IMG/VR virus record: IMGVR_UViG_2909298281_000002
Origin: a virus
Lineage: Duplodnaviria > Heunggongvirae > Uroviricota > Caudoviricetes
Strand: one strand, 5' to 3'
DNA: 43,281 nt
Below are positions 12,935-43,281 of this stretch, piece by piece. The first letter of the stretch is position 1, and every line of letters begins with the position of its first letter. The notes beneath the pieces are model-generated. The model saw nothing but the letters and a program-made list of their open reading frames with translations. It was not told the DNA's origin and did not search any database. The translations under genes were made by a program, and so were the position numbers.

Positions 12935-13514
12935 AATTCATATGAATTCTGTTTCCGAGATAATATAATCCAAAGAAAGTTGATACTAAGAGTTGCCAAA
13001 CGAGGAAAGTAAATACAACAGTATAAACCATTAAAACAATACTGTTTTGATAGACATTGATTAATGGTGAAAATATAGCATTAAGTATTATTATAACAAT
13101 GCTTAATGCTGTTAAAAAAGAGAATAGCATGCAAAGAAATAAGCGTCTGGTCAGAACCTCCTCTGAATTTACTACTTTTCCATTTTCTTTTGTTACTTTT
13201 ATTTCAATAGAGGCATTTCTTTCATTGCTAATCAATGGTAAATCAATCTCAGCTCTATTGAAAGTTGCTATGGCGGCCAGAGCGGCAATATAAAACCCTG
13301 GTAGGTTAGAGATAAATGAAACGATTGATTTAATGAAACCATTGTCATCAAATAAATCTTTGACAGGGATTTTTAATAGAATGAAAAGTACTGCTGTGAT
13401 AGAAGTAAGTAGAATTGGTGCTACCCAATCATATGCAGCTTTGCCGCTAATACCTTTAATAAAAAGATATCCAAACGGCTTGCCTAGATGAGAGAAAACT
13501 GAAAGTATTGGCAT
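12930..13514 (-). CDS. predicted four-helix integral membrane protein (second gene of the accessory cassette)
   Basis: 194 aa; ATG with GAGG 8 nt upstream, 7 nt after the upstream stop; four hydrophobic segments (about residues 25–47, 60–85, 125–150, 155–185); about 30% GC against about 50% for the flanking phage DNA. Confidence 0.8.
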   Translation of the reverse strand: MPILSVFSHLGKPFGYLFIKGISGKAAYDWVAPILLTSITAVLFILLKIPVKDLFDDNGFIKSIVSFISNLPGFYIAALAAIATFNRAEIDLPLISNERNASIEIKVTKENGKVVNSEEVLTRRLFLCMLFSFLTALSIVIIILNAIFSPLINVYQNSIVLMVYTVVFTFLVWQLLVSTFFGLYYLGNRIHMNY

Positions 13515-20290: not shown

Positions 20291-20499
20291 ACCAGAATGA
20301 TATCGAAGCCATGATTCAGCGTTATACGGAAGCTGAAATGGCGGTGCTGGACGGAAAATCCGTCACCTTTAATGGTCAGCAGATGACCATGGAAAACTTA
20401 TCTGAGATCCGGCAGGGACGGCAGGAGTGGGAGCGCCGCCTTGCGGCTCTGATTACACGACGACGGGGGCATCCCGGGTACCGGCTGGCGAGGTTCTGA
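20287..20499 (+). CDS. head-tail joining protein (gpW-like)
   Basis: 70 aa ending ...RRRGHPGYRLARF, like the lambda W C-terminus; GGAGG 6 nt upstream of the ATG at 20287 (alternative ATG at 20281). Confidence 0.7.
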   Translation: MNQNDIEAMIQRYTEAEMAVLDGKSVTFNGQQMTMENLSEIRQGRQEWERRLAALITRRRGHPGYRLARF

Positions 20500-22007: not shown

Positions 22008-22020
22008 TTCCTGGTTCAGG

Positions 22021-23979: not shown

Positions 23980-24002
23980 ACGTCGCAGACAACAACTCTG
24001 AT

Positions 24003-24022
24003 GGCCCGTAAGGGCTTTTTTT
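24003..24022 (+). terminator. intrinsic terminator after the capsid gene
   Basis: GGCCC-gtaa-GGGC hairpin followed by seven T; a second hairpin CAGCCCC-tgaa-CGGGGCTG (24035–24052) has no T-run. Confidence 0.5.
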
Positions 24023-24065
24023 GTACCTGAAATCAGCCCCTGAACGGGGCTGTGCGGAGACAGTT

Positions 24066-24389
24066 ATGGCAAAGAATTTTGTAGAAGAAGGAAAAGCGGT
24101 GGCGATTGTTGCCAGTGCAGCCATCAGCAGCGGAGATCTGGTGCAGGTGGGCGATGTTTTTGCGGTGGCGCTGACCGATATTCCACAGGGTGAAACAGGC
24201 GACGGCATGACCGAAGGTGTGTTTATGCTGCCTAAGCTGAAAACGGATGACATGAAAACGGGTAAGAAGGTTTATCTGAAGGCCGGAAAAGTTCAGCTGA
24301 CTAACAGCGGCTCTGATCCGCTGGTCGGGGTTGTCTGGGCAGATGCCGGAACCAGTGCAGAAGAAGTGCCGGTAAAACTCAATGTCTGA
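24066..24389 (+). CDS. small head protein (DUF2190-like, putative decoration or head-completion protein)
   Basis: 107 aa from the ATG at 24066 (GGAG 7 nt upstream); position directly after the capsid gene. The track start at 24021 is not an ATG. Confidence 0.65.
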   Translation: MAKNFVEEGKAVAIVASAAISSGDLVQVGDVFAVALTDIPQGETGDGMTEGVFMLPKLKTDDMKTGKKVYLKAGKVQLTNSGSDPLVGVVWADAGTSAEEVPVKLNV

Positions 24390-24657
24390 TCCCTTTTCCC
24401 GGCTGGCAGCGCGTATGGATGCTATCACGGTCAGAAAGATGGGAAAGACAGCCTCGATTAATGATGTCGATATGACTGTGATCCCGGGAGAAACACTGGC
24501 AGAGCTGAATGCTCTGTCCGGACCTGCGGTCTCTCTGGTGGTGTTTTCTTCGGGATACCGCCCACGGCGCGGGGATCGCGTTGTTTATGACGGACAACAA
24601 TGGACGGTCACACGGCATGAACGCTTTAACGGTAAGCCAATGATCTTTATTGAGTAA
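24382..24657 (+). CDS. head-tail connector/adaptor protein
   Basis: 91 aa, overlapping the upstream gene; the family is often mis-annotated as a sugar transporter in Gifsy-type prophages. Confidence 0.65.
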   Translation: MSDPFSRLAARMDAITVRKMGKTASINDVDMTVIPGETLAELNALSGPAVSLVVFSSGYRPRRGDRVVYDGQQWTVTRHERFNGKPMIFIE

Positions 24658-24668
24658 AGAGGTGTGGG

Positions 24669-25247
24669 ATGAAGGGGCTTGAGAATGCCATCCGCAATCT
24701 GAACAGCCTTGATACCCGTATGGTGCCACAGGCCAGCGCATGGGCGATAAACCGTGTGGCACAGAAAGCGGTCTCGGTTACCACCCGGCAGGTTGCCGGG
24801 AATACCGTTGCGGGAGATAACCAGGTGAAAGGGATCCCCCTGAAACTGGTACGTCAGCGTGTCCGGGTGTTTAAAGCCAGTCCGTCAGGAAAAATGACGG
24901 CCAGGATCCGCGTTAACCGGGGCAATCTGCCTGCCATTAAGCTGGGGACAGCCCGGGTCAGACTGGCCCGGCGTGGTGGAAAACTGCAGTACCGTGGCAG
25001 TGTGCTGAAGGTGGGTAAATATCTTTTCCGGGATGCGTTTATTCAGCAACTGGCGAATGGTCGCTGGCATGTGATGCGGCGTATTGATGGCAAAAATCGT
25101 TACCCCATTGATGTGGTGAAAATCCCGCTGTCCGGACAGCTGACACAGGCATTTGAAGATGCCCGCGACCGCATCATTGCTGCGGAAATGCCGAAACAGC
25201 TGGGGTATGCACTGAAACAACAACTGAGGTTATGGCTGACCCGATGA
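24669..25247 (+). CDS. tail completion protein (lambda Z-like)
   Basis: 192 aa, same length and position as lambda Z, directly upstream of the U homolog. Confidence 0.7.
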   Translation: MKGLENAIRNLNSLDTRMVPQASAWAINRVAQKAVSVTTRQVAGNTVAGDNQVKGIPLKLVRQRVRVFKASPSGKMTARIRVNRGNLPAIKLGTARVRLARRGGKLQYRGSVLKVGKYLFRDAFIQQLANGRWHVMRRIDGKNRYPIDVVKIPLSGQLTQAFEDARDRIIAAEMPKQLGYALKQQLRLWLTR

Positions 25248-25645
25248 ACCGACATACACAAATCCGCCAGGTCGTACTGGCACGCCTTCGGGAACAGTGT
25301 AGAGACAGCGCCACGTTTTTTGACGGGCTTCCGGCATTTATTGATGCGCAGGAACTGCCTGCCGTGGCGGTGTGGCTGAGTGATGCTCAGTACACCGGAA
25401 AAATGACGGATGAAGATGACTGGCAGGCTGTTCTGCATATTGCTGTCTTCATCCGGGCACAGGCACCGGATTCAGAGCTGGATATGTGGATGGAGAGCAC
25501 CATTTTCCCGGCCCTGAATGATGTACCAGCACTTTCCGGACTCATCGACACCCTGATCCCTCTCGGTTTTAACTATCAACGTGATAATGAGATGGCCACC
25601 TGGGCGATGGCGGAAATCACGTACCAGATCACGTACACGAATTAA
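25232..25645 (+). CDS. U: tail terminator protein (lambda U homolog)
   Basis: 137 aa, clear similarity to lambda gpU (ATFFDG.PA..D....PAVAV.L..A.YTG ... PDSELD.WMES.I.P). Confidence 0.85.
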   Translation: MADPMNRHTQIRQVVLARLREQCRDSATFFDGLPAFIDAQELPAVAVWLSDAQYTGKMTDEDDWQAVLHIAVFIRAQAPDSELDMWMESTIFPALNDVPALSGLIDTLIPLGFNYQRDNEMATWAMAEITYQITYTN

Positions 25646-25650
25646 AGGAG

Positions 25651-26400
25651 GTGGCAATGACCACACCAAATCCACTGGCAAAAACGAAAGGTGCGGGAAC
25701 GACGTTCTGGATGTACACCGGCAAGGGCGATGCGTTTGCGAACCCTTTATCGGACACTGACTGGCTGCGTCTTGCGATGGTGAAGGATCTGCAACCTGGC
25801 GAAATGACCGCTGATGCAGAAGATGACACTTATCTCGATGATGAAGATGCAGACTGGAAAACGACAACCCAGGGGCAGAAATCCGTCGGTGATACTTCGG
25901 CGACGCTGGCCTGGCGTCCGGGTGACAGCGGGCAGAAAAAACTGGTTCAGTTGTTCGACTCCGGTGAAGTCTGCGCGTTTCGTATCAAATATCCCAACGG
26001 CACTGTTGATGTTTTCCGTGGCTGGCTGAGCTCACTGGGTAAAACCATTGCCTCAAAAGACGTGATGACCCGCACAGTGAAAATCAGCGGTGTGGGGCGT
26101 CCGTATCTGGCAGAGGAAGGCACTGAAACAGTGAGCGTTACCGGGCTGACGGTGGCACCGGCATCTGCCAGTGTAAAAGTGGGAGCAACCACCACGCTGA
26201 CCTTTACAGTAAAACCTGACGGAGCCAGTGACAAAGCGATCAGTGTGCATTCGACAGATCCACAGACTGCCACGGTGACCCTGAACGGGCTTGTGGCCAC
26301 GGTGAAAGGCGTGAAGCAGGGCAGTGTCAGCATTGTGGGCATGACTTCTGACGGCGATTTTGTGGCAGTGGCTGCGGTGGCTGTCAGCGCCGCAGGTTAA
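25651..26400 (+). CDS. V: major tail tube protein with C-terminal Ig-like domain (lambda V homolog)
   Basis: 249 aa, strong similarity to lambda gpV (KGAGTT.W.Y.G.GD..ANPLSD.DW.RLA.VKDL.PGE.TA ... IRFPNGTVDVFRGW). Confidence 0.9.
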   Translation: MAMTTPNPLAKTKGAGTTFWMYTGKGDAFANPLSDTDWLRLAMVKDLQPGEMTADAEDDTYLDDEDADWKTTTQGQKSVGDTSATLAWRPGDSGQKKLVQLFDSGEVCAFRIKYPNGTVDVFRGWLSSLGKTIASKDVMTRTVKISGVGRPYLAEEGTETVSVTGLTVAPASASVKVGATTTLTFTVKPDGASDKAISVHSTDPQTATVTLNGLVATVKGVKQGSVSIVGMTSDGDFVAVAAVAVSAAG

Positions 26401-26420
26401 CAGGACGATACTCATCATTT

Positions 26421-26445
26421 GCCCCGGTTATCCGGGGCTTTTTTG
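26421..26445 (+). terminator. intrinsic terminator after the major tail gene
   Basis: GCCCCGG-ttat-CCGGGGC hairpin followed by six T, immediately after the V stop. Confidence 0.7.
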
Positions 26446-26460
26446 CAGGTGGAGAACATG

Positions 26461-26847
26461 ATGTTTCTGAAACAGGGCACGTTTAATTATGAAAAGCAGT
26501 CCGTGGTGCTCAGTGAGCTGTCCGGGCTGCAGAGAATTGAATATCTGGCGTTTGTTCAGCAGCGAACGGCAAAGTTTGATGCCGAAGAGGGAGAACTGCC
26601 GGAGGCTGAACGACAGATTGCTTTTCTGCGGATGGGGATGGATATCAATGCCTGGCTGGTTTCCCGCTCACTGTGGAATGCGGAACAGTCTCAGGATGTT
26701 GAGACGCTTTGCGCATCCGTTATTACAACATGGTCGTATGATGCCCTGGGAGCGGGGGCGGAGATGGTTCTGTCGCTGAGCGGTATGGGAGTCATTGAGA
26801 ATGCCGGGGATTTGGAGCATGAGGTGCTGACGCCGGAAAAGTCCTGA
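26461..26847 (+). CDS. G: tail assembly chaperone G
   Basis: 128 aa from the ATG at 26461 (MFLKQGTFNYEK..., similar to lambda G); GGAG Shine-Dalgarno; the track start is a TTG. Confidence 0.8.
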   Translation: MFLKQGTFNYEKQSVVLSELSGLQRIEYLAFVQQRTAKFDAEEGELPEAERQIAFLRMGMDINAWLVSRSLWNAEQSQDVETLCASVITTWSYDALGAGAEMVLSLSGMGVIENAGDLEHEVLTPEKS

Positions 26848-27185
26848 CGCGGGAAATGCAGTTTGTCATGCGGCTTGCCCGGGAGTTCCGGCGGGCAGAC
26901 TGGCGGCGGATGCTGTCGGAAATGTCGGCCACTGAGCTTGGTGAGTGGGGCGATTATTTCCGGATGCAGAGCTTCAGTGATGTGTGGATGGATGCGCAGT
27001 TTGCCTCGCTGAAGGCATTGATCGTGAGAATGGTGTCCGGCAGCAGTGATGCTGCGGTGGCTGATTTCAGCCTTTTACCGGAAGAGAACGGGATACCGGA
27101 GCGAACGGACGAAGAACTGATGCATCTTGGGGAAGGTATTTCCGGAGGTGTGCGTTATGGACCAGATAGCCAACCTGGTCATTGA
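26461..27185 (+). CDS. tail assembly chaperone G-T fusion via a -1 translational frameshift
   Basis: The T-frame ORF (26823–27185) has no convincing independent start and overlaps the last eight codons of G in the -1 frame; slippery-like sequence G GAA AAG at 26835–26841, placed as the lambda G GGA AAG site. Confidence 0.55.
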
Positions 27186-30100
27186 TTTGGGGATTGATGC
27201 GGCAGAGTTTAAAAATGAAATTCCCCGTATCAAAAACCTTCTGAATGGTGCCGCCAGCGATGCAGAACGGTCTTCTGCCCGTATGCAGCGTTTTATGGAG
27301 CGTCAGACTCAGGCCGCCCGGCAGACAACGCAGGCGGCTTCTTCGGCTGCAACAGCCGCCTCCGTCCATGCGCAGACGGTGGAGAAGAACGCACAGGCTC
27401 ATGAACGCATGGCCCGCGAGGTGGAGAAAACCTGCCAGCGCATGGAGGCGCTGGGCCAGAAAATGCGCGAGGAACAGGCGCAGGCCATGGCTCTGGCGGA
27501 GGCTCAGGATAAAGCGGCTGCTGCGTTTTATCGTCAGATTGACAGTGTGAAACAGGCCAGTGCGGGGCTGCAGGAATTACAGCGTATTCAGCAGCAGATC
27601 CGACAGGCCAGAAACAGTGGCGGGATTGGTCAGCAGGATTATCTGGCGCTGATTTCTGAGGTTACGGCGAAAACCCGTGTTCTTACACAGGCTGAGGAAG
27701 AGGCTACCCGACAGAAAGTGGCGTTTATCCGTCAGCTTAAAGAGCAGGCAACCCGCCAGAATCTTTCTTCTTCTGAGTTGCTTCGTGCTAAGGCTGCCCA
27801 GCTGGGGGTAAGCAGTGCTGCAGAAGTGTATATCCGCAAAATGGAGCAGGCAGGAAAAGCCACGCATTCGCTGGGTCTGAAAAGTGCAGCGGCCCGCCAG
27901 GAGATAGGCGTTCTGATAGGTGAACTGGCTCGCGGCAATTTAGGTGCGCTGAGGGGATCCGGGATAACGCTGGCTAACCGTGCCGGATGGATAGACACAC
28001 TGATGTCACCGAAAGGCATGATGCTGGGCGGGGTTATTGGCGGTATTGCCGCGGCCGTCTATGGTCTGGGTAAAGCCTGGTATGACGGTCAGAAGGAGGG
28101 GGAAGAATTTAACCGCCAGTTGTCGCTGACGGGGCATTATGCCGGAGTCACTGCCGGGCAGCTGTGGACGCTTAGTCGTGCTATTTCCGGGAATGGTATC
28201 ACGCAACATGCTGCAGCCGGTGCGCTGGCTCAGGTGGTGGGGAGTGGTGCATTTCGTGGAAACGATATCGGTATGGTGGCGAGAGCTGCCGCACAGATGG
28301 AGCGATCGGTTGGCCAGTCGGTCAGCGATACCATAAATCAGTTTAAGCGGCTGAAGGATGATCCTGTAAATGCCGCGAAGGCTCTGGACAATGAGCTGCA
28401 TTTTCTTACTGCCACTCAGCTTGAGCAGATACGTGTCCTTGGGGATCAGGGACGGTCCAGTGATGCTGCACGGATAGCCATGTCTGCACTGGCAGAGGAA
28501 ACCGGTCGGCGTACTGCGGATATTGATAATAACCTCAATGCGCTTGGCAGTACGCTGAAGTATCTGTCTGATTTGTGGAGTCGTTTCTGGGATGCGGCCA
28601 TGAATATTGGTCGTGAAGACTCGCTGGATGAACAGATTGCCGCTTTACAGGAGAAAGTGTCGCGGGCGAAAAGACTCCCCTGGACGGCATCATCTTCTCA
28701 GGTTGAATACGATCAGCAGCGTCTTAACGATCTTCAGGAGAAAAAACGCCAGAAGGATTTGCAGGATGCAAAAGAGCAGGCAGAGCGGAATTATCAGGAG
28801 CAACAGAAACGACGTAATGCTGAAAATGCTGCACTGAACCGGATGAATGAAACGGAAGCAGCACGACATCAGCGTGAAATTGCGCGTATTAATGCCATGC
28901 AGTACGCCGACCAGGCTGTCAGGGATGCGGCGATACAACGTGAAAATGAACGTTACGAGAAAGCCCTGGCATCCGGTAAGAAAAAAACACGCGAAACCCG
29001 TAATGATGAGGCCACCCGGTTATTGCTGCAGTACAGTCAGCAACAGGCACAGGTGGAAGGGCAGATTGCTGCTGCAAGACAGTCAGCAGGCATTGCCACT
29101 GAAAAGATGACAGAAGCGCATAAACAGCTTCTGGCTCTGCAGCAGCGCATCAGCGACCTGGGCGGGAAAAAACTGACGGCAGATGAAAAGAGTGTGCTGG
29201 CCCGTAAAGATGAACTGATTCAGGCACTGACGCTGCTGGATGTAAAACAGCAGGAGCTTCAGAAACAGACGGCACTCAACGAGCTGAAGAAAAAAACAAT
29301 TCAGCTGACCAGTCAACTGGCTGAAGAAGAGCGCGCTCAGCGTCAGCAACATGACCTGGATATCGCCACGGTGGGTATGGGTGATCAGCAGAGGCAGCGA
29401 TATCAGGTACAACTGAGTCTTCGCCAGAAATACCAGCAACAGCTGGAGCAGTTGAGGCGGGATAGTGAGCAGAAAGGGACATATAACACGGATGACTACA
29501 GAAAGGCCGAGCAGGCGCTGACGGAGAGCCTGAACCGACAACTGAATGAGAATCGCCGTTACTGGCAACAGCTTGAAATTGCTCAGGGTAACTGGAAAAA
29601 CGGTGCTATGCGGGCGTTTCAGAATTTCACGGCAGATGCGGATAATGCGGCAGGCACTGCTGAGCAGATGCTTACAGCGGCATTTAACAGTGCAGGTAAT
29701 GCACTGGCAACGTTCTGTACTACCGGAAAACTGAACTTCAAATCTTTTACCGCCTCGCTCCTTTCTGATCTGGCAAAAATCATGGCCCAGATGTCCATGA
29801 TGCAGGCAGTTAAGGGGATTGGTTCGGCGTTTGGCTGGGGGAGTGCAGCAACTGCCAGTGTGACGCCCAATGCTGATGGTGGTGTTTATCAGTCTGCTGA
29901 TTTGAGTCGCTACAGTGGCACGGTGGTTAACCGTCCGACGTTTTTTGCTTTTGCAAAAGGTGCAGGTGTGATGGGGGAAGCTGGGCCTGAAGCCATTCTG
30001 CCTCTGCGTCGTGGTGCTGACGGTAAGCTGGGGGTTGTGGCGGATATTGGTGGTTCAGGTATGGCGATGTTTGCCCCGCAGTACAACATCGAGATCAATA

Positions 30101-30231
30101 ACGATGGCACGAACGGGCAGATAGGTCCGGCTGCCCTGAAGGTGGTTTATGACCTCGGGAAAAAAGCGGCAGCGGACTTTATGCAACAGCAGTCCCGTGA
30201 TGGTGGTCGGTTAAGTGGAGCATATCGGTAA
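27157..30231 (+). CDS. H: tail tape measure protein (lambda H-like)
   Basis: 1024 aa from the ATG at 27157 (GGAGG 8 nt upstream); long coiled-coil, Gln/Ala-rich central region; position between G-T and M. Confidence 0.9.
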   Translation: MDQIANLVIDLGIDAAEFKNEIPRIKNLLNGAASDAERSSARMQRFMERQTQAARQTTQAASSAATAASVHAQTVEKNAQAHERMAREVEKTCQRMEALGQKMREEQAQAMALAEAQDKAAAAFYRQIDSVKQASAGLQELQRIQQQIRQARNSGGIGQQDYLALISEVTAKTRVLTQAEEEATRQKVAFIRQLKEQATRQNLSSSELLRAKAAQLGVSSAAEVYIRKMEQAGKATHSLGLKSAAARQEIGVLIGELARGNLGALRGSGITLANRAGWIDTLMSPKGMMLGGVIGGIAAAVYGLGKAWYDGQKEGEEFNRQLSLTGHYAGVTAGQLWTLSRAISGNGITQHAAAGALAQVVGSGAFRGNDIGMVARAAAQMERSVGQSVSDTINQFKRLKDDPVNAAKALDNELHFLTATQLEQIRVLGDQGRSSDAARIAMSALAEETGRRTADIDNNLNALGSTLKYLSDLWSRFWDAAMNIGREDSLDEQIAALQEKVSRAKRLPWTASSSQVEYDQQRLNDLQEKKRQKDLQDAKEQAERNYQEQQKRRNAENAALNRMNETEAARHQREIARINAMQYADQAVRDAAIQRENERYEKALASGKKKTRETRNDEATRLLLQYSQQQAQVEGQIAAARQSAGIATEKMTEAHKQLLALQQRISDLGGKKLTADEKSVLARKDELIQALTLLDVKQQELQKQTALNELKKKTIQLTSQLAEEERAQRQQHDLDIATVGMGDQQRQRYQVQLSLRQKYQQQLEQLRRDSEQKGTYNTDDYRKAEQALTESLNRQLNENRRYWQQLEIAQGNWKNGAMRAFQNFTADADNAAGTAEQMLTAAFNSAGNALATFCTTGKLNFKSFTASLLSDLAKIMAQMSMMQAVKGIGSAFGWGSAATASVTPNADGGVYQSADLSRYSGTVVNRPTFFAFAKGAGVMGEAGPEAILPLRRGADGKLGVVADIGGSGMAMFAPQYNIEINNDGTNGQIGPAALKVVYDLGKKAAADFMQQQSRDGGRLSGAYR

Positions 30232-30560
30232 TGGAGACGTTTCACTGGAAAGTGCGCCCGGATATGAATGTGGTATCAGAGCCGAAAGTGGTGACAGTGA
30301 AGCTGGGCGATGGTTATGAACAGCGTCGTGCGGCGGGACTGAATAACCAGTTGTCGACTTACAGCGTGACGATACGTGTTCGTAAATGTGAACACCCATC
30401 TTTAAAAGCCTTTCTGGAACGGCACGGTGGCGTCCGCGCATTTCAGTGGACGCCACCTTATGACTGGAAGCCGATCAGGGTGGTTTGTCGTAAATGGTCG
30501 GCAAGCGTGGGGGCGCTGTGGGTAACCATAACGGCAGATTTTGAACAGGTCGTGGCATAG
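30231..30560 (+). CDS. M: minor tail protein M
   Basis: 109 aa, same length as lambda M and close similarity; ATG overlaps the H stop (TAATG). Confidence 0.9.
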   Translation: METFHWKVRPDMNVVSEPKVVTVKLGDGYEQRRAAGLNNQLSTYSVTIRVRKCEHPSLKAFLERHGGVRAFQWTPPYDWKPIRVVCRKWSASVGALWVTITADFEQVVA

Positions 30561-30569
30561 GAGGCCCTG

Positions 30570-31268
30570 ATGCAGGATATTTCACAGGAAACACATCATG
30601 AGACGACACGCCTCACTCAGTCAGCCCAGGTGGTGCTCTGGGAAATCGATCTGACAGTGGTCGGTGGTGAACGTTATTTTTTCTGTAATGAGCAGAACGA
30701 TAAAGGTGAGCCGGTCACCTGGCAGGGGCGACAGTATCAGGCGTATCCCATTCAGGGGACGGGATTTGAACTGAACGGCAAAGGCAGTGCTGCCCGTCCG
30801 ACACTGACGGTTTCTAACCTGCACGGCATGGTCACCGGGATGGCGGAAGACCTGCAGAGTCTGGTCGGAGGAACGGTGGTCCGGCGTAAGGTTTACGCCC
30901 GTTTTCTGGATGCGGTGAACTTCGTCAACGGAAACAGTGACGCCGATCCGGAGCAGGAGGTGATCAGCCGCTGGCGCATCGAGCAGTGCAGTGAACTGAG
31001 CGCGGTGAGTGCCTCTTTTGTACTGTCCACGCCGACGGAAACGGACGGTGCCGTTTTTCCGGGACGTATCATGCTGGCCAACATCTGCACCTGGACCTAT
31101 CGCGGTGATGAGTGCGGTTATCACGGTCCGGCGGTCGCGGATGAATATGATCAGCTGACGTCCGATATCACGAAGGATAAATGCAGCAAATGCCTGAGCG
31201 GCTGTAAGTTTCGCAATAACGTCGGCAACTTTGGCGGCTTCCTTTCCATTAACAAACTTTCGCAGTGA
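30570..31268 (+). CDS. L: minor tail protein L
   Basis: 232 aa, near-identical to lambda L as recalled (MQDI.QET...VVLWEIDLT.VGGERYFFCNEQN.KGEPVTWQGRQYQ). Confidence 0.95.
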   Translation: MQDISQETHHETTRLTQSAQVVLWEIDLTVVGGERYFFCNEQNDKGEPVTWQGRQYQAYPIQGTGFELNGKGSAARPTLTVSNLHGMVTGMAEDLQSLVGGTVVRRKVYARFLDAVNFVNGNSDADPEQEVISRWRIEQCSELSAVSASFVLSTPTETDGAVFPGRIMLANICTWTYRGDECGYHGPAVADEYDQLTSDITKDKCSKCLSGCKFRNNVGNFGGFLSINKLSQ

Positions 31269-31273
31269 ATCCC

Positions 31274-32017
31274 ATGACAGAGACAGAATCAGCGATTCTG
31301 GTGCACGCCCGGCGATGTGCGCCAGCGGAGTCGTGCGGCTTCGTGGTGAGAACACCGGAGGGGGAAAGATATTTTCCCTGCGTGAATATATCCGGTGAGC
31401 CGGAGGAGTATTTCCGGATGTCGCCGGAGGACTGGCTGAGTGCAGAAATGCAGGGAGAGATTGTGGCGCTGGTCCACAGCCACCCCGGTGGTCTGCCCTG
31501 GCTGAGTGAGGCCGACCGGCGGCTGCAGGTGCAGAGTGATTTGCCGTGGTGGCTGGTCTGCCGGGGGGCGATTCATAAATTCCGCTGTGTGCCGCATCTC
31601 ACCGGGCGGCGCTTTGAGCACGGGGTGACGGACTGTTACACGCTGTTCCGGGACGCTTACCATCTGGCGGGGATTGAGATGCCGGATTTTCATCGCGGGG
31701 ATGACTGGTGGCGTCACGGTCAGAATCTCTATCTGGATAATCTGGAGGCCACAGGGTTGTATCAGGTGCCGTTGTCATCAGCACAACCGGGCGATGTGCT
31801 GCTGTGCTGCTTTGGTTCATCGGTGCCGAATCATGCCGCCATTTACTGTGGTGACGGCGAGCTGCTGCACCATATTCCTGAACAACTGAGCAAACGAGAG
31901 AGGTATACCGACAAATGGCAGCGACGCACACACTCCCTCTGGCGTCACCGGGCATGGCGCGCATCTGCCTTTACGGGGATTTACAACGATTTGGCCGCCG
32001 CATCGATCTGCGTGTGA
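31274..32017 (+). CDS. K: tail tip assembly protein K (JAB/MPN-like plus NlpC/P60-like domains)
   Basis: Lambda K-like; JAMM-type motif HSHPGGLPWLSEAD. Start uncertain: the ATG at 31274 gives 247 aa, an internal ATG gives the 199 aa usually quoted for lambda K. Confidence 0.8.
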   Translation: MTETESAILVHARRCAPAESCGFVVRTPEGERYFPCVNISGEPEEYFRMSPEDWLSAEMQGEIVALVHSHPGGLPWLSEADRRLQVQSDLPWWLVCRGAIHKFRCVPHLTGRRFEHGVTDCYTLFRDAYHLAGIEMPDFHRGDDWWRHGQNLYLDNLEATGLYQVPLSSAQPGDVLLCCFGSSVPNHAAIYCGDGELLHHIPEQLSKRERYTDKWQRRTHSLWRHRAWRASAFTGIYNDLAAASICV

Positions 32018-32556
32018 AAACGGGGGCCGAAGCCATCCGGGCGCTGGCCATGCAGATCCCGGCGTTTCGTCAGAAGCTGAGCGACGGCTGGTATCAGGTA
32101 CGCATTGCCGGGCGTGATACAGGTGAAACGGAATTATCAGCCCGTCTTAATGAACCGCTGGCAAATGGTGCTGTGATCCATATCGTGCCGCGTCTGGCGG
32201 GAGCCAAAAGTGGCGGTGTGTTTCAGGCTGTGCTGGGGGCGGCTGTTATGGCGGTTGCTATATGGATGCCGGGGGTAGGAATTATGGCGAGTAATCTGCT
32301 GTTTTCTCTCGGTGCCAGTATGACGCTTGGCGGTGTTGCACAGATGCTGGCCCCTAAACCCAAAACCCCCCGCACACAGACAACGGATAACGGCAAACAG
32401 AACACCTATTTTTCTTCACTGGATAACATGGTTGCCCAGGGCAATGTTCTGCCTGTTCTGTACGGTGAAATGCGCGTGGGGTCACGCGTGGTTTCTCAGG
32501 AGATCAGCACGGCAGACGAAGGGGATGGTGGTCAGGTTGTGGTGATTGGTCGCTGA
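31915..32556 (+). CDS. I: tail tip assembly protein I
   Basis: 213 aa; N- and C-terminal regions near-identical to lambda I (MAATHTLPLASPGMARICLYGDLQRFGRRIDLRVKTGAEAIRALA...); overlaps the K 3' end. Confidence 0.9.
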   Translation: MAATHTLPLASPGMARICLYGDLQRFGRRIDLRVKTGAEAIRALAMQIPAFRQKLSDGWYQVRIAGRDTGETELSARLNEPLANGAVIHIVPRLAGAKSGGVFQAVLGAAVMAVAIWMPGVGIMASNLLFSLGASMTLGGVAQMLAPKPKTPRTQTTDNGKQNTYFSSLDNMVAQGNVLPVLYGEMRVGSRVVSQEISTADEGDGGQVVVIGR

Positions 32557-32616
32557 TGCAAAATGTTTTATGTGAAACCGCCTGCGGGCGGTTTTGTCGT
32601 TTATGGAGCGTGAGGA

Positions 32617-35600
32617 ATGGGTAAAGGAAGCAGTAAGGGGCATACCCCGCGCGAAGCGAAGGACAACCTGAAGTCCACGCAGTTGCTGAGTGTGATTGAT
32701 GCCATCAGTGAAGGGCCGATTGAAGGTCCGGTGGATGGATTAAAAAGCGTGCTGCTGAACAGTACGCCGGTGCTGGACAGTGATGGGAATACCAACATCG
32801 CCGGTGTCACGGTGGTGTTCCGGGCCGGTGAGCAGGAGCAGACTCCGCCGGAGGGATTTGAATCCTCCGGCTCCGAGACGGTGTTGGGTACGGAAGTGAA
32901 ATACGACACGCCGATCACCCGCGCCATCACGTCGGCAAACATCGACCGACTGCGCTTTACCTTCGGTGTGCAGGCACTGGTGGAAACCACCTCAAAGGGG
33001 GACCGGAATCCGTCGGAAGTTCGCCTGCTGGTTCAGATACAGCGTAATGGTGGCTGGGTGACGGAAAAAGACATCACCATTAAGGGCAAAACCACCTCGC
33101 AGTATCTGGCCTCGGTGGTGGTGGATAACCTGCCGCCGCGCCCGTTTAATATCCGGATGCGCAGAATGACGCCGGACAGCACCACAGACCAGCTGCAGAA
33201 CAAAACGCTCTGGTCGTCATACACCGAAATCATCGATGTGAAACAGTGCTACCCGAACACGGCACTGGTCGGCGTGCAGGTGGACTCGGAACAGTTCGGC
33301 AGCCAGCAGGTGAGCCGTAATTATCATCTTCGCGGGCGCATTCTGCAGGTGCCGTCGAACTATAACCCGCAGACGCGGCAATACAGCGGTATCTGGGACG
33401 GAACGTTTAAGCCAGCATACAGCAACAACATGGCCTGGTGTCTGTGGGATATGCTGACCCATCCGCGCTACGGCATGGGGAAACGTCTTGGTGCGGCGGA
33501 TGTGGACAAATGGGCGCTGTATGTCATCGGCCAGAATTGCGACCAGTCGGTGCCGGATGGCTTTGGTGGCACGGAGCCGCGCATCACCTGTAATGCCTGG
33601 CTGACCACACAGCGCAAGGCGTGGGATGTTCTCAGTGATTTCTGCTCGGCGATGCGCTGTATGCCGGTATGGAACGGGCAGACGCTGACGTTCGTGCAGG
33701 ACCGACCGTCGGATAAGGTGTGGGCCTATAACCGCAGTAATGTGGTGATGCCGGATGATGGCGCGCCGTTCCGCTACAGCTTCAGTGCCCTGAAGGACCG
33801 TCATAATGCCGTTGAGGTGAACTGGATTGACCCGGATAACGGCTGGGAGACGGCGACAGAGCTTGTTGAAGATACGCAGGCCATTCTCCGTTACGGTCGT
33901 AACGTCACGAAGATGGATGCCTTTGGCTGTACCAGCCGGGGCAGGCGCACCGCGCCGGGCTGTGGCTGATTAAAACGGAACTACTGGAAACGCAGACCGT
34001 GGACTTCAGCGTGGGTGCGGAAGGGCTTCGCCATGTGCCGGGCGATGTCATTGAAATCTGCGATGATGACTATGCGGGGATCAGCACCGGCGGGCGCGTG
34101 CTGGCGGTGAACAGCCAGACCCGGACGCTGACGCTCGACCGTGAAATCACGCTGCCATCCTCCGGTACCACGCTGATAAGCCTGGTTGACGGAAGTGGCA
34201 ATCCGGTCAGCGTGGAGGTCCAGTCCGTCACCGACGGCGTGAAGGTAAAAGTGAGCCGTGTTCCTGACGGCGTTGCCGGATACAGCGTATGGGGGCTGAA
34301 GCTGCCGACGCTGCGCCAGCGCCTGTTCCGCTGCGTGAGTATCCGTGAGAACGACGACGGCACGTATGCCATCACCGCCGTGCAGCATGTACCGGAAAAA
34401 GAAGCCATCGTGGATAACGGGGCGCACTTTGACGGCGACCAGAGCGGCACGGTGAATGGTGTCACGCCGCCAGCGGTGCAGCACCTGACCGCAGAAGTCA
34501 CCGCAGACAGTGGGGAATACCAGGTGCTGGCGCGATGGGACACACCGAAGGTGGTGAAGGGCGTGAGCTTCCTGCTCCGTCTGACCGTAACAGCGGACGA
34601 CGGCAGTGAGCGGCTGGTCAGCACGGCCCGGACGACGGAAACCACATACCGCTTCACGCAACTGGCGCTGGGGAACTACAGGCTGACAGTCCGGGCGGTA
34701 AATGCCCGGGGGCAGCAGGGTGATCCGGCGTCGGTATCGTTCCGGATTGCCGCACCGGCAGCACCGTCGAGGATTGAGCTGACGCCGGGCTATTTTCAGA
34801 TAACCGCCACGCCGCATCTTGCTGTTTATGACCCGACGGTACAGTTTGAGTTCTGGTTCTCGGAAAAGCGGATTACCGATATCAGGCAGGTTGAAACCAC
34901 AGCCCGCTATCTTGGTACGGCGCTGTACTGGATAGCCGCCAGTATCAATATCAAACCGGGCCATGATTATTACTTTTATATCCGCAGTGTGAACACCGTT
35001 GGCAAATCGGCATTCGTGGAGGCTGTCGGTCGGGCGAGCGATGATGCGGAAGGTTACCTGGATTTTTTCAAAGGAGAAATCGGGAAAACACATCTGGCCC
35101 AGGAGCTGTGGACGCAGATTGATAACGGTCAGCTTGCGCCGGACCTGGCTGAAATCAGGACGTCCATTACGAATGTCAGCAATGAAATCACGCAGACCGT
35201 CAATAAAAAACTGGAAGACCAGAGTGCGGCAATCCAGCAGATACAGAAAGTTCAGGTTGATACAAATAATAACCTGAACAGCATGTGGGCCGTGAAACTG
35301 CAGCAGATGAAGGACGGACGCCTTTATATTGCGGGTATCGGAGCCGGTATTGAGAATACGCCAGCAGGTATGCAGAGTCAGGTGCTTCTGGCTGCTGACC
35401 GGATTGCGATGATTAATCCTGCGAATGGCAACACAAAGCCGATGTTTGTTGGTCAGGGCGATCAGATATTCATGAACGACGTGTTCCTGAAACGCCTGAC
35501 GGCTCCGACCATTACCAGTGGCGGTAATCCTCCGGCATTTTCCCTGACACCGGACGGGCGGCTGACGGCGAAAAATGCCGATATCAGCGGTAACGTGAAT

Positions 35601-36095
35601 GCGAACTCCGGGGCGCTCAACAACGTCACGATTAACGAGAACTGTCGGGTTCTGGGAAAATTGTCCGCCAACCAGATTGAAGGCGATCTCGTTAAAACAG
35701 TGGGCAAAGCTTTCCCCCGGGACTCCCGTGCACCGGAACGGTGGCCATCAGGGACCATCACCGTCAGGGTTTATGACGATCAGCCGTTTGACCGGCAGAT
35801 TGTTATTCCGGCGGTGGCATTCAGCGGCGCTAAACATGAGCGGGAGAATAACGATATTTATTCGTCATGCCGCCTGATAGTACGGAAAAACGGTGCTGAA
35901 ATTTATAACCGTACCGCGCTGGATAATACGCTGATTTACAGTGGTGTTATTGATATGCCAGCTGGTCGCGGCCACATGACGCTGGAGTTTTCGGTGTCAT
36001 CATGGCTGGTAAATGACTGGTATCCCACAGCAAGTATCAGCGATTTGCTGGTTGTGGTGATGAAGAAAGCCACCGCAGGCATCAGTATCAGCTGA
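32617..36095 (+). pseudogene. J: tail tip / host-specificity protein J, split by a 1-nt deletion in a G-run (frameshift at 33938–33941)
   Basis: Track ORFs 32617–33969 (450 aa) and 33999–36095 (698 aa) together cover lambda J. The second frame is open from 33903 and reads ...[29 protein letters not shown] as in lambda. The run CCGGGGCAGG has four G where lambda has five as I recall, giving [12 protein letters not shown]-stop. The C-terminal 250 aa diverge from lambda. Confidence 0.7.
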
Positions 36096-36113
36096 ATTTT
36101 ATAACCCATATAC

Positions 36114-36140
36114 GGGCGCCAGAAATGGCGCCTTTTTTAT
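36114..36140 (+). terminator. intrinsic terminator after J
   Basis: GGCGCC-agaaat-GGCGCC hairpin followed by TTTTTTATT. Confidence 0.7.
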
Positions 36141-36162
36141 TGCAGAAAAGCGAGAGGTAATT

Positions 36163-36762
36163 ATGCGTAAAGTTTGTGCAGCCATTTTGTCCGCAGCCAT
36201 CTGTCTGGCCGTATCCGGTGCGCCTGCATGGGCGTCTGAGCAGCAGGCCACGCTGAGCGCAGGGTATCTTCATGCCCGTACGAACGCTTCCGGCAGCGAT
36301 AATCTGAACGGGATTAACGTGAAATACCGTTATGAGTTTACGGACACGCTGGGGCTGATTACGTCATTCAGTTATGCCAACGCTGAAGATGAGCAAAAAA
36401 CGCATTACAGCGATACCCGCTGGCATGAAGATTCCGTTCGTAACCGCTGGTTCAGCGTAATGGCGGGGCCGTCTGTGCGCGTGAATGAATGGTTCAGCGC
36501 GTATGCGATGGCGGGTGTAGCTTACAGCCGTGTGTCGACTTTCTCCGGGGATTATCTTCGCGTAACTGACAACAAGGGGAAAAAGCACGATGTGCTGACC
36601 GGAAGTGATGACGGTCGCCACAGCAACACGTCTCTGGCGTGGGGGGCTGGCGTGCAGTTTAACCCGACCGAATCCGTGGCCATTGATATTGCTTATGAAG
36701 GCTCCGGCAGTGGTGACTGGCGCACTGACGGTTTCATCGTGGGTGTCGGTTATAAATTCTGA
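36163..36762 (+). CDS. lom: outer-membrane protein Lom (Ail/Lom family)
   Basis: 199 aa with signal peptide; C-terminus ...VDIAYEGSGSGDWRTDGFIVGVGYKF identical to lambda Lom as recalled; GAGAGG Shine-Dalgarno. Confidence 0.9.
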   Translation: MRKVCAAILSAAICLAVSGAPAWASEQQATLSAGYLHARTNASGSDNLNGINVKYRYEFTDTLGLITSFSYANAEDEQKTHYSDTRWHEDSVRNRWFSVMAGPSVRVNEWFSAYAMAGVAYSRVSTFSGDYLRVTDNKGKKHDVLTGSDDGRHSNTSLAWGAGVQFNPTESVAIDIAYEGSGSGDWRTDGFIVGVGYKF

Positions 36763-36788
36763 TTAGCCAGGTAACACAGTGTTATGAC

Positions 36789-36816
36789 AGCCCGCCGGTT
36801 CAGGCGGGCTTTTTTG
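36789..36816 (+). terminator. intrinsic terminator after lom
   Basis: AGCCCGCC-ggttca-GGCGGGCT hairpin followed by five T. Confidence 0.7.
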
Positions 36817-36826
36817 TGGGGTGAAT

Positions 36827-39800
36827 ATGGCAGTAAAGATTTCAGGTGTACTGAAAGACGGCACAGGAAAACCGGTACAGAACTGCACAATCCAGCTGAA
36901 AGCAAAACGTAACAGCACCACGGTGGTGGTGAACACGCTGGCCTCAGAAAATCCGGATGAAGCCGGGCGTTACAGCATGGACGTTGAGTACGGGCAGTAC
37001 AGCGTTATTCTGTTGGTGGAGGGATTCCCGCCGTCACATGCCGGGACCATCACCGTGTATGAAGATTCCCGACCCGGTACGCTGAATGATTTTCTCGGTG
37101 CCATGACGGAGGATGATGCCCGTCCTGAGGCACTGCGCCGTTTTGAACTGATGGTGGAAGAGGTGGCGCGTAACGCGTCCGCGGTGGCACAGAACACGGC
37201 AGCCGCGAAGAAGTCAGCCAGCGATGCCGGCACATCAGCACGTGAGGCGGCAACCCATGCGACTGATGCTGCAGGCTCAGCACGCGCAGCCAGCACGTCA
37301 GCCGGACAGGCCGCGTCGTCGGCTCAGTCAGCATCTTCCAGCGCAGGAACGGCATCAACAAAGGCCAGTGAAGCATCGAAAAGTGCTGCTGCTGCAGAGT
37401 CCTCAAAAAGCGCGGCAGCTACCAGTGCCGCTGCGGCGAAAACGTCAGAAACGAATGCGGCAGCGTCACAACAATCAGCAGCCACTTCTGCATCCGCCGC
37501 GACCACGAAGGCGTCAGAAGCAGCCACCTCAGCACGGGATGCGGCGGCCTCAAAAGAGGCAGCGAAATCATCAGAAACGAACGCATCATCAAGCGCCAGT
37601 AGTGCCGCTTCCTCGGCAACGGCGGCAGGCAATTCCGCGAAGGCGGCAAAGACGTCTGAGACAAACGCCAGGTCTTCTGAAACGGCAGCGGGACAGAGCG
37701 CCTCGGCTGCGGCAGGCTCAAAAACAGCGGCTGCGTCGTCTGCCAGTGCCGCGTCAACAAGTGCCGGGCAGGCCTCAGCCAGTGCCACCGCCGCCGGAAA
37801 ATCGGCAGAAAGTGCCGCATCGTCTGCTTCAACAGCCACAACGAAGGCTGGCGAAGCCACTGAACAGGCCAGCGCAGCAGCGAGGTCTGCTTCCGCAGCG
37901 AAGACATCCGAGACGAACGCGAAAGCGTCGGAAACCAGCGCAGAATCCTCAAAAACGGCTGCCGCATCGTCCGCCAGTTCGGCGGCGTCATCGGCATCAT
38001 CGGCGTCTGCTTCAAAAGATGAGGCGACCAGACAAGCGTCCGCAGCGAAGGTCAGCGCCACGACAGCATCCACGAAGGCGACAGAGGCAGCTGGCAGTGC
38101 GACGGCGGCAGCACAGAGCAAAAGTACGGCGGAATCCGCGGCAACGCGCGCCGAGACAGCGGCAAAACGGGCAGAGGATATTGCATCCGCCGTGGCGCTT
38201 GAGGATGCAAGTACGACGAAAAAGGGGATAGTACAGCTCAGCAGTGCGACCAACAGTACGTCTGAAACGCTGGCGGCAACGCCAAAGGCAGTAAAATCAG
38301 CCTATGACAATGCAGAGAAACGTCTGCAGAAAGACCAGAACGGCGCTGATATACCCGATAAGGGACGCTTCCTGAACAACATTAACGCGGTCAGTAAAAC
38401 AGACTTTGCTGATAAGCGTGGTATGCGTTATGTGCGGGTTAACGCTCCTGCAGGTGCAACATCTGGAAAATATTACCCTGTTGTTGTTATGCGTTCTGCT
38501 GGCTCAGTAAGCGAACTGGCATCAAGGGTCATTATCACCACGGCAACGCGAACCGCAGGCGATCCGATGAATAACTGCGAGTTTAACGGATTTGTTATGC
38601 CTGGTGGCTGGACTGACAGGGGGCGTTATGCTTATGGAATGTTCTGGCAATATCAAAACAATGAACGAGCCATCCACTCAATAATGATGAGTAATAAGGG
38701 CGATGATTTGCGCTCTGTGTTCTATGTTGATGGCGCTGCTTTCCCTGTTTTTGCGTTTATCGAAGATGGCCTGTCAATATCCGCACCTGGTGCTGATCTC
38801 GTTGTTAATGATACGACCTATAAGTTTGGGGCAACAAATCCAGCGACTGAATGTATCGCGGCGGACGTTATCCTTGATTTTAAGAGTGGGCGTGGTTTTT
38901 ATGAGTCTCATTCGTTAATCGTTAACGATAACTTGTCGTGCAAAAAACTTTTTGCCACAGACGAAATTGTAGCGCGTGGTGGTAATCAGATTCGAATGAT
39001 AGGTGGGGAGTATGGGGCATTATGGCGTAATGATGGCGCTAAAACTTACCTGCTGCTTACCAATCAAGGTGATGTTTATGGTGGATGGAATACATTAAGA
39101 CCGTTTGCTATTGATAACGCAACCGGCGAACTGGTTATTGGAACCAAGCTGTCTGCAAGTCTGAACGGTAACGCATTGACAGCAACAAAGCTGCAAACGC
39201 CAAGACTGGTTTCTGGGGTTGAGTTTGATGGTTCAAAATATATTACTTTAACCGCCGCGCATGTGGCTGCTTTTGCCAGAAGGGCAACGGATACATATGC
39301 CGATGCGGATGGTGGCGTTCCCTGGAATGCCGAATCAGGCGCTTACAATGTCACCCGCTCTGGCGACAGCTATATTCTGGTTAACTTCTATACCGGAGTC
39401 GGAAGTTGCCGGACCCTGCAGATGAAGGCGCATTACAGAAATGGTGGTCTGTTCTACCGTTCTTCAAGAGACGGTTATGGTTTTGAGGAAGACTGGGCAG
39501 AAGTTTATACCTCGAAAAATCTTCCACCAGAAAGCTACCCAGTCGGCGCACCAATCCCGTGGCCATCAGATACCGTTCCGTCTGGTTATGCCCTGATGCA
39601 GGGGCAGACTTTTGACAAATCTGCTTACCCGAAACTTGCAGCCGCTTATCCGTCAGGCGTGATCCCTGATATGCGTGGCTGGACGATTAAGGGCAAGCCC
39701 GCCAGTGGTCGTGCCGTATTGTCTCAGGAACAGGACGGCATTAAATCGCACACCCACAGCGCCAGCGTATCCAGTACGGATTTGGGTACGAAAACCACAT

Positions 39801-40225
39801 CATCGTTTGATTACGGCACTAAATCCACGAATAACACTGGTGCGCATACTCATAGTTTAAGTGGCAGCACGAATGCAGCTGGTAATCACAGCCATAGAGA
39901 TGGCCGTCGATTTAACCCCAGTGTTTTTAAAGATACTTATCAATATGGTTATACAAGCTCAGGTCAAAATACCTGGGGTGTACAAGGCTCAGTAGGTATG
40001 TCTACGGGGTGGTTAGCTAATACCAGTACAGATGGTAATCATAGCCACTCACTGTCCGGCACAGCAGCATCTGCAGGTGCACACGCGCATACTGTCGGTA
40101 TTGGTGCTCATACGCACTCCGTTGCGATTGGTTCACATGGACACACCATCACCGTTAACGCTGCTGGTAATGCGGAAAACACCGTCAAAAACATCGCATT
40201 TAACTATATTGTGAGGCTTGCATAA
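36827..40225 (+). CDS. stf: side tail fibre protein Stf
   Basis: 1132 aa from the ATG at 36827; N-terminus matches lambda Stf ([37 protein letters not shown]); long Ala/Ser-rich repetitive shaft; C-terminus with repeated His-x-His boxes (GAHTHS, GNHSHS, GAHAHT, GSHGHT) ending ...[11 protein letters not shown]. Confidence 0.9.
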
Positions 40226-40806
40226 TGGCATTCAGAATGAGTGAACAACCACGGACCATAAAAATTTATAATCTGCTGGTCGGGACTAATGAATTTATTG
40301 GTGAAGGTGACGCATATATTCCGCCTCATACAGGTCTGCCAGCAAACAGTACCGATATTGCACCGCCAGATATTCCGGCAGGCTTCGTGGCTGTTTTCAA
40401 CAGTGATGAGGCATCGTGGCATCTCGTTGAAGATCATCGGGGTAAAACGGTTTATGACGTGGCTTCCGGCGACGCGTTATTTATTTCTGAACTCGGTCCG
40501 TTACCGGAAAATGTTACCTGGTTATCGCCGGGAGGGGAATATCAGAAGTGGAACGGCACAGCCTGGGTGAAGGATACGGAAGCAGAAAAACTGTTCCGGA
40601 TCCGGGAGGCGGAAGAAACAAAAAACAGCCTGATGCAGGCAGCGAATGAGCATATTGCGCCACTTCAGGATGCTGTAGATCTGGAAATCGCAACGGAGGA
40701 AGAAATCTCGTTGCTGGAAGCATGGAAAAAGTATCGGGTATTGCTGAACCGTGTTAATACAACAACTGCACCGGATATTGAATGGCCAGTAGCACCTATA
40801 GGGTAA
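40225..40806 (+). CDS. tfa: tail fibre assembly protein Tfa
   Basis: 193 aa, near-identical to lambda Tfa ([77 protein letters not shown]); ATG overlaps the stf stop. Confidence 0.95.
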
Positions 40807-41666
40807 ATTCGTAATGATTACCTAAATACGTTATTCTTTTGTTCAAAAAGTGATTTTGCTATAGGTAGGGAGTATGTTCTTGGATTAAGAATAAAAAATC
40901 GCCATGAAAGAGCTTCATGGCGAGTACATAAACGTACAAAATGTGATGAAAGTAGAGTGGCGTAAGCCACTATATTAAGATATGACAATAGCGAACAAAA
41001 GTAAATAACATTTTATGGACGTTTAATTGTTAATTATAAAAACTAGAGTGCCCGATATTGTTTATCTTGCTTTAAAATAATGTACTCAAACCAAATTTTT
41101 GAGCTAAAAGCTCAAATAATATAAATGCAATGATAATGTTTAATAAGACAATTAGCTTGCTTTGTATTTTCATTTCGGAATACTGTTAAGTAACTTTGAT
41201 GACCCTAACAATAGATCGGAATTTTCTTAGAGTCAATGGTCACTGTTTTTGTTTGCAAAGCAAATGTTTTGGTGGTTATAAGTTGTCTTAATATAGTCAC
41301 GCATGCAACTTGTTCCATGCGGAGATTAAAGATTGGAATATAACGCGAAGATGGAATTAAATTACATTTGCAATAATCAATTTATTATTACTCAATAATT
41401 ACCGATATTATTATTGTAAATTAATCATTAGAGTGCAAAAAGAAATATAACGGCAAAATAAGAGGACGATAGCTGAGAAAAAAGCGTGCTTTCCCAATCT
41501 GGGGCAAATCACGTCTGAATGACACCTGAAAACAGGTAGTAGCCTCAAGAAGGCTTGGAATATTCTTCTTTAATATTATGTAATTCATTGATTTTTCGTG
41601 TACGATTTTAAGACATTTATTCCAAGAAAAATTTTTAACTCTTTGATTTTTCGACTCTGTATCATC

Positions 41667-41727
41667 GGTCTCGAAAACCGGAGTAGGGGCAACTCTACCG
41701 GGGGGGCGAATCCCCCTCTCTCCGCCA
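41667..41727 (+). other. tRNA-Ser 3'-half fragment (pseudo-tRNA, probable att-site relic)
   Basis: GGTCTCGAAAACCGGAGTAGGGGCAACTCTACCGGGGGGGCGAATCCCCCTCTCTCCGCCA matches the anticodon stem-loop (anticodon CGA) through the 3' end of the serU-type tRNA-Ser as recalled, with an altered T-loop and no 5' half. Confidence 0.6.
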
Positions 41728-42310
41728 CTTTATCAATGACTTATCTCCCGACTTCCCGCCTTGCTTTTCCTAAACAGAACAATCGTAGAATATTCTTGAA
41801 GGGTTAGATCGTCACTGTTTTCTGTTCGATACTGTGACATTCAGCACTTGATTCGCTATGGATCTGACAGGAAGGTTTCGAGCGAAAATCTGCAGTTATT
41901 CAGTCGTTTTCTTATCGGTCACCATTATTCTTTTAGACATTGATCCTACAAAGCTGCCGCAAAGTTGGTGGTGGGAACTGAAGTTGCGTAGAGAAGGGGT
42001 CAATACCCGGAGGCAAACATGGGCTGGCAAAAGTGTAGCGGTATTAGGCGCAGCTATTTAGCCTAGTTATGTTTTATGAAAACTTGATATCATATAAGTG
42101 TCTTACTTATTGGCTGTAAATAAGGTTTTCTAAGGAATTGTTTCTTTAGTATCATTTGTAACTGTAACGGAATTTATAATCCTTTACTTTATTTTTACGG
42201 TGTTTTTTATCACACCCTATTTTTTATGTGGTTTTTTATACTGAAGTTTGGCAAAGTGAACTTTATATGCATATACTTCATCCTGGTTTCAGTTAAATTG
42301 GGTGGATGAT

Positions 42311-43054
42311 ATGGCAACTACATGTTCAGTTATATTGATTTTGGAGCCCTTTGATGTTTATTTCGGAAAAGAGAGTGTGTTTCTGGATAGAGGTTTATCT
42401 GTACTTGTCGACTCTAGCTATAGAGATTTTTTCCTGACATATCCTGAAAGAGTGATAGTGGCGGATTTTGGCGCTGAGTTTATTAGTCGCTATTTGAAAG
42501 CTAATAACTTAAGGGATATTTCTGATTGTAGGGAATATCCATCTTATTTAAAAATAAACTTTGCTGACTTCAGTTTAATTAAAGGATTAATTAGTTGGGC
42601 TAATCACTGTGCTGAATATATAGAAATTTTTGATGAGTCTATTGCTTTTACATGTCTCTCTGCATTTTCTTCTGAAAAACAATTTGGAGTATTTCTGTTT
42701 GGATGTTTGAAAAGCACAGGGGCTAAAGTTAAAACGATTATTCATACGGATTTATCTGCACCATGGCATCTTAAGGATATATCATCAAGATTATATCTCA
42801 GCGAAAGTTTACTAAAGAGGAAATTGAAAGAAGAGGGGGTATCATTCAGTAAGATCCTACTTGATGAGAGGATGCAAATGGCTGAATATTTACTCAGCAC
42901 TCGTTGTTATCCTATTAGTAAAGTAGCTAAGGTCTGTGGTTATGCCAGTGTCTCATACTTTACTTATGTATTTAGACGTTATTTTGGTGTTTCTCCAAGT
43001 CAATACTCTCAGAGGAGTTCAGAAAGTAAAATTCTTACTCACCAGGGAATCTAA
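42311..43054 (+). CDS. AraC/XylS-family transcriptional regulator (AppY/EnvY/GadX-like)
   Basis: 247 aa from the ATG at 42311 (the track start is a GTG at 42302); C-terminal AraC-type double HTH (WHLKDISSRLYLSESLLKRKLKEEGVSFSKILLDERMQMAEYLL...YASVSYFTYVFRRYFGVSPSQY); lies in very AT-rich DNA. Confidence 0.8.
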   Translation: MATTCSVILILEPFDVYFGKESVFLDRGLSVLVDSSYRDFFLTYPERVIVADFGAEFISRYLKANNLRDISDCREYPSYLKINFADFSLIKGLISWANHCAEYIEIFDESIAFTCLSAFSSEKQFGVFLFGCLKSTGAKVKTIIHTDLSAPWHLKDISSRLYLSESLLKRKLKEEGVSFSKILLDERMQMAEYLLSTRCYPISKVAKVCGYASVSYFTYVFRRYFGVSPSQYSQRSSESKILTHQGI

Positions 43055-43057
43055 TCA

Positions 43058-43281
43058 TTGTTCTTGCCCCCTTATTTCCAGACAGGGGGTGTATCTTAAG
43101 TTAACGTTACCCGCTGACGTCGATATTCTCGCGGAGAGCGATAACCCAACGCACTGTGCGGATGGTTTTCATTGTAATGTTCGATCGCCACTGCAAGATT
43201 ATGCAATGCCGTTCTTATATTCGGTTTCGGCATGAACGCGATGTAGTCTTCCTTCATCGTTTTCACGAACCTTTCTGCCAT
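43058..43281 (-). mobile_element. IS2-like insertion sequence (IS3 family), terminal part only; continues beyond the window
   Basis: Terminal inverted-repeat-like sequence, minus strand TGTCTGGAAATAAGGGGGCAAGAACA, resembles the IS2 end as recalled; adjacent transposase C-terminus; starts 3–6 bp after the AraC stop. Confidence 0.6.
43096..43281 (-). CDS. IS3-family transposase OrfB, C-terminal fragment truncated by the window edge
   Basis: ...[16 protein letters not shown]...[22 protein letters not shown] matches the conserved C-terminal end of IS2-type transposases; the ORF is open to the window boundary. Confidence 0.7.

Follow-up and report, generated by a model that had tools for sequence, protein, structure and literature searches.

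One missing G splits the tail tip gene J of a prophage in the assembly of ETEC strain D181

The J protein of phage lambda nucleates tail assembly, and lambda gpJ, with its PDB structures 8IYK and 8XCG, is the closest described counterpart of the gene discussed here. This gene, for the tip attachment or host specificity protein, occupies positions 32617–36095 (plus strand) of the window, as we call the whole 43,281-nucleotide stretch of viral DNA that was analyzed (IMG/VR virus record IMGVR_UViG_2909298281_000002), and it measures 3479 nt here versus 3480 nt in all of its relatives, one G being absent from a homopolymer. With that G restored, residues 1–835 of the protein align without a gap to residues 1–835 of the lambda J chain 8iyk_J (phmmer, E = 0), and 8xcg, like 8iyk, matches at E = 0. 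The Pfam families FNIII-A_GpJ, Phage-tail_3, Ig_J, Ig_J_second, Phage_Tail_Tip and Ig_GpJ_C all score above their gathering thresholds over the two fragments, and the domain order is that of lambda gpJ. The gene also has the same place as in lambda, after I and before lom/stf; called genes and Pfam families show the order H-M-L-K-I-J-lom-stf-tfa in the two loci inspected (L001 and L005). Identity to lambda-group phages runs at 94% along the first 3.1 kb of J, whereas the last ~380 nt, the receptor-binding end, are unmatched there and match other prophage J alleles as well as the structures 9wca and 8xcj. The lengths also differ, at 1132 aa for lambda J versus 1159 aa for the repaired protein. 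By these comparisons of sequence, the gene belongs to the lambda J family and is unremarkable within it except for a non-lambda receptor-binding end; it is set apart from lambda gpJ in this record by a reading frame that is broken at codon 442.

The break itself is simple to describe. The window reads GGGG exactly at 33938–33941 (plus strand), with C flanking the run on either side, where every relative has five Gs and the intact codons CGG GGG CAG encode R-G-Q. The ORF that opens at 32617 follows J through ...DAFGCTSRG, that is, through residue 442, then runs out of frame for eight codons (RRTAPGCG) and stops, for a product of 450 aa (32617–33969, plus strand). The frame shifted by one base stays open to the stop at 36095 and continues J past the junction, giving 717 codons that begin QAHRAGLW (33942–36095, plus strand); the gene called for this part starts at a GTG at 33999 and encodes 698 aa. 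In other words, one uninterrupted ORF of about 1130–1160 codons is replaced in the record by ORFs of 450 and 698 aa. Adding a single G to the run yields one ORF of 3480 nt and 1159 aa without an internal stop, equal in length to gpJ in two annotated relatives and with the junction at residues 442/443, and the collinearity with 8iyk_J continues straight across that junction. Within the protein, the frameshift cuts Phage-tail_3 at profile position 109 of 164. An earlier note on this DNA had claimed that J is split by the loss of one base from a run of Gs, that the two ORFs join once one G is added, and that the downstream frame carries on the lambda J sequence; each of these statements is borne out, and the loss of one base in J is a deterministic fact of the sequence in which no statistical signal is involved.

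The window corresponds to CP024252.1:1631447–1674727 (GCA_002741275.1, 4.89 Mb), which places the G run, by offset, at 1665384–1665387. CP024252 is the record of ETEC strain D181 (O182:H21, ST4493, phylogroup B1; PMC8281228). Its accession falls among those of the CDC ETEC set, which PMC8281228 cites as PacBio-sequenced (reference 305); accession and citation together suggest that D181 belongs to a PacBio-only set. Neither NZ_CP024252 nor CP189652.1, a related genome described below, was found in the RefSeq-based collection, and we draw no inference from that absence. The prophage is lambdoid and integrated at thrW: it adjoins proA and the thrW tRNA-Thr(CGT) gene, and its integrase sits beside the tRNA. 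The tRNA, at 1369–1444, forms the left end, and a search near the right end of the window for attR found no stretch of the thrW region repeated over at least 12 nt. The right flank (40806–43281) carries an AraC-family gene, an IS integrase remnant, a LysR fragment and XdhC/xanthine-dehydrogenase-family genes, and we take it to resemble the CP4-6 region of K-12.

For this allele, the base is missing only in the CP024252.1 assembly, and once it is put back the gene is an exact copy of a known intact allele. The repaired J equals one known protein (P0001; EEV9913856.1 and others) across all 1159 residues, a protein that 17 other contigs encode in prophage and chromosomal settings of several kinds. 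The 450- and 698-aa products occur on one contig only, CP024252.1, among 153 billion gene positions. At the nucleotide level, the 3480-nt J was identical to the window apart from the G in 9 of the 10 contigs fetched; GGGGG is present in all relatives whose loci include the site, and GGGG is confined to three loci that all come from CP024252.1. The closest contig, LGNB01000083.1, shows no SNP over 26164–39015 (12.9 kb) and a single SNP over 20028–39015 (19 kb), plus the G in each case. CP189652.1, a complete genome in which this prophage occupies the same site, differs from the window over 17157–43281 by 14 SNPs and the G. For the prophage's left half and the chromosome that flanks it, APZL01000070.1 differs by 36 SNPs with no gaps over 20.8 kb. 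One pair of loci (L004 and L005) differed by one gap in 20.6 kb. Altogether, about 49 kb of D181 were set against near-identical relatives, and the missing G is the sole indel: the other 48 G/C runs of at least five bases in the window show no length difference from the relatives compared, and no further homopolymer indel in the D181 assembly was found in the portion compared, which amounts to 1% of the genome. A search among contigs with the exact tape-measure protein, Lom or repaired J found no independent sequence of D181.

LGNB01000083.1 is not the same strain as D181, because its terminase region differs. At the equivalent of window positions 18287–19833 (1126–2672 of locus L016 from this contig, large terminase), it is 81.5% identical to the window with 26 gaps and has no ORF called; this stretch could be low-quality sequence or a degenerate terminase. 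At window position 25528, D181 has A, LGNB01000083.1 has T and CP189652.1 has G. The position lies in a SNP cluster (25272–25932) in the U/V region that looks like a small recombination patch.

The rest of the prophage was also inspected. The upstream tail genes V, G, T, H (tape measure, 27157–30231), M, L, K and I (25651–32556, plus strand) are all open, as are lom (36163–36762), stf for the side tail fibre (36827–40225) and tfa for tail fibre assembly (40225–40806), which follow J on the same strand (36163–40806). Over 26164–39015 the tail module equals that of LGNB01000083.1 base for base except for the G, with all genes there called intact, and wherever a comparison was possible the tail genes are identical to copies called intact elsewhere; the exact tape-measure protein, for example, recurs on at least 24 further contigs. 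Apart from J, every head, tail and lysis gene is open and agrees with its counterpart in intact relatives, and no further frameshift, stop, deletion or IS element was found in the structural genes of the prophage. The suggestion made beforehand that the remaining tail module is intact is thus correct. On identical DNA (31265–32556), gene callers give K 199 or 247 aa and I 180, 200 or 213 aa; this disagreement over starts is a difference in annotation and no lesion. Between the antiterminator Q gene and the holin lie two genes on the minus strand (12930–13514 and 13522–14544) for which no Pfam family scored significantly above threshold. In PADLOC they hit a candidate defence pair, PDC-M53B (E = 1.8e-54) and PDC-M53A (E = 1.4e-32), and the same slot in related prophages holds DUF6650, an SMC/AAA_23 protein or an NA37 pair.

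Is the same G ever missing elsewhere? A 61-nt query across the site matched 5,954 places in 3,663 RefSeq complete E. coli genomes, with no exact match to the four-G form. Short queries that seed only on the four-G form recovered one and then five RefSeq records, namely CLSC36, 204446, RM14723, a plasmid of 13TMH22, 14EC047 and RM8082, which makes 6 records versus about 6,000 matched J copies; the accessions of the six are NZ_CP019258.1, NZ_CP024155.1, NZ_CP025910.1, NZ_CP027103.1, NZ_CP041300.1 and NZ_CP043825.1. IMG/VR holds four contigs with four Gs (L043–L046) and more than 120 with five among the matches listed, and no six-G form was found there. Scans for the exact four-G pattern gave no hit in GTDB representative genomes (two scans) and none in JGI metagenomes. 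The four IMG/VR carriers represent four different J alleles, 93–97% identical to the window, and each has several further single-base homopolymer differences, both gains and losses, relative to its nearest relatives. The four RefSeq carriers that we opened have J annotated as 'frameshifted' by PGAP, and each has two to six genes so labelled within 24 kb; in RM14723 and RM8082, the prophage lies next to ompT, and both J and a Z-like tail gene are frameshifted. All eight carriers examined have more homopolymer indels or 'frameshifted' genes within the same 5–24 kb. Losses of a G from the tract thus recur but are rare, and the assemblies or prophages in which they occur abound in such events; this recurrence fails to tell sequencing noise from decay.

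What, then, removed the G from the D181 record? We lean towards a homopolymer consensus error, in which G5 was read as G4 and J is intact in the cell. The run would have been under-called and left that way in the consensus of the long-read-only assembly CP024252.1 (D181, deposited 2017), and the record would then break the phage's single tip attachment protein of 1159 aa into ORFs of 450 and 698 aa. We infer that the cause lies in the sequencing platform rather than in the cell: the shorter run is found in one assembly and the longer run in all close relatives, and the other indels near the four-G tract in the eight carriers form the pattern of an error-prone consensus. The six RefSeq records with four Gs have accessions (CP019–CP043) that presumably date, as the D181 record does, to 2017–2019, a period of uncorrected long-read assemblies. 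Additionally, a real indel on the D181 branch is unexpected a priori because the private branch is very short (0–1 SNP over 13–19 kb). Real indels arise at about a tenth of the substitution rate, and at that rate we estimate roughly 0.05–0.1 real indels in this stretch; for residual long-read consensus errors the estimate is about 0.02–0.7, at frequencies from one per 25 kb to one per Mb. Several considerations count against a consensus error. Only one indel is seen in about 49 kb, so the residual error rate of D181 is low; slippage mutation and consensus error leave one and the same signature, a loss of one base in a G/C run; and prophages that are truly defective often carry frameshifted tail genes. 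A real and very recent loss of one G by replication slippage, either in the D181 lineage or in the stock that was sequenced, is accordingly a reading that we hold to be quite possible. Slips of −1 in G/C runs are the commonest spontaneous indels, prophage structural genes in lysogens are under relaxed selection, and a finished assembly that is free of other indels over such a length implies a consensus of locally high quality. The same tract is short of one G in other genomes, with J 'frameshifted' in all four RefSeq records opened, and the paired lesions of RM14723 and RM8082 could reflect real, inherited events; a break inside a folded domain, followed by a poor ribosome binding site at GTG 33999, would moreover amount to a true loss of function. 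Yet the remaining 3479 nt are identical to the intact allele in nine independent assemblies, with no other decay, and this allele with four Gs appears in no second assembly searched. If real, the loss must be very recent because no secondary decay has accumulated, and the 0–1 SNP that separates the neighbouring 13–19 kb from the closest contig would make the event extremely recent; the platform inferred for the D181 assembly is, in addition, known for exactly this type of error. Sequencing error or inactivating mutation was also the choice posed by the earlier note, and it is the right one, the repaired gene being an intact J allele and the split products being present in one assembly only. 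Its wording of a prophage fixed in a tail-defective state is another matter and exceeds the evidence: secondary decay is absent, and a real change would have to be very recent.

To anything besides a consensus error or a real slippage mutation we give only a very slight probability. The tract could, for example, be a functional switch, either a site of programmed ribosomal frameshifting or a phase-variable tract that toggles production of J and tails, and its length has indeed changed repeatedly in independent J alleles (the four IMG/VR contigs and six RefSeq records above). A switch is nonetheless extremely improbable, as known tracts of phase variation or transcriptional slippage are much longer than these 4–5 bases, the four-G form is rare and the six-G form was not found, and the out-of-frame end consists of eight junk residues and a stop, with no conserved alternative product. 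In each of the eight four-G carriers examined, unrelated homopolymer indels lie close by, which suits noise or decay better than a dedicated switch. Lambdoid tails have a known programmed frameshift, in G/T and not in J, and we set aside programmed frameshifting and phase variation here, having found no long tract, no products conserved in both frames and no frequent variants. A related and very doubtful proposal is that the conserved G5 at J codons 441–442 is a mutational hot spot at which independent lysogens repeatedly lose tail-tip function. If true, it would describe a recurrent first step of prophage domestication that leaves lysis and packaging intact.

The consequences differ with the cause. 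If the missing G is the consensus error that we favor, an ETEC prophage that is intact, and probably inducible, is under-annotated in GenBank. If the deletion is real, J ends at residue 442, inside the Phage-tail_3 hub domain, and a functional J is not expected. The prophage would still excise, replicate, package and lyse, and induction would release DNA-filled, tail-less, non-infectious heads; unable to make tails, the prophage would be trapped in its host. We also considered and rejected a functional two-piece J produced by re-initiation at GTG 33999: such a J would lack 20 conserved residues and have a folded domain cut in two, and the ribosome binding site is poor, a weak GGAA being the only Shine-Dalgarno-like sequence that we read upstream of this GTG.

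Whether an error or a mutation, the missing G is ordinary. Both frameshifted J pseudogenes and homopolymer consensus errors are thoroughly familiar, and nothing here is new. What the locus does offer is a caution: when a long-read-only assembly shows a single isolated homopolymer frameshift, this is not to be counted as a pseudogene or as a sign of a defective prophage unless reads support it. With the frameshifted J pseudogenes of defective E. coli lambdoid prophages, the D181 gene shares the class of lesion and, in six RefSeq genomes, the very same G tract; those prophages differ in that frameshifts affect two to six of their structural genes within about 24 kb, whereas in D181 the lesion is the sole one in about 49 kb. 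From the homopolymer consensus errors of long-read and pyrosequencing assemblies, D181 differs in the low rate that it implies, one event in 49 kb, and it resembles them in each other respect compared: a single-base deletion in a G/C run, present in one assembly, within an allele that is otherwise intact.
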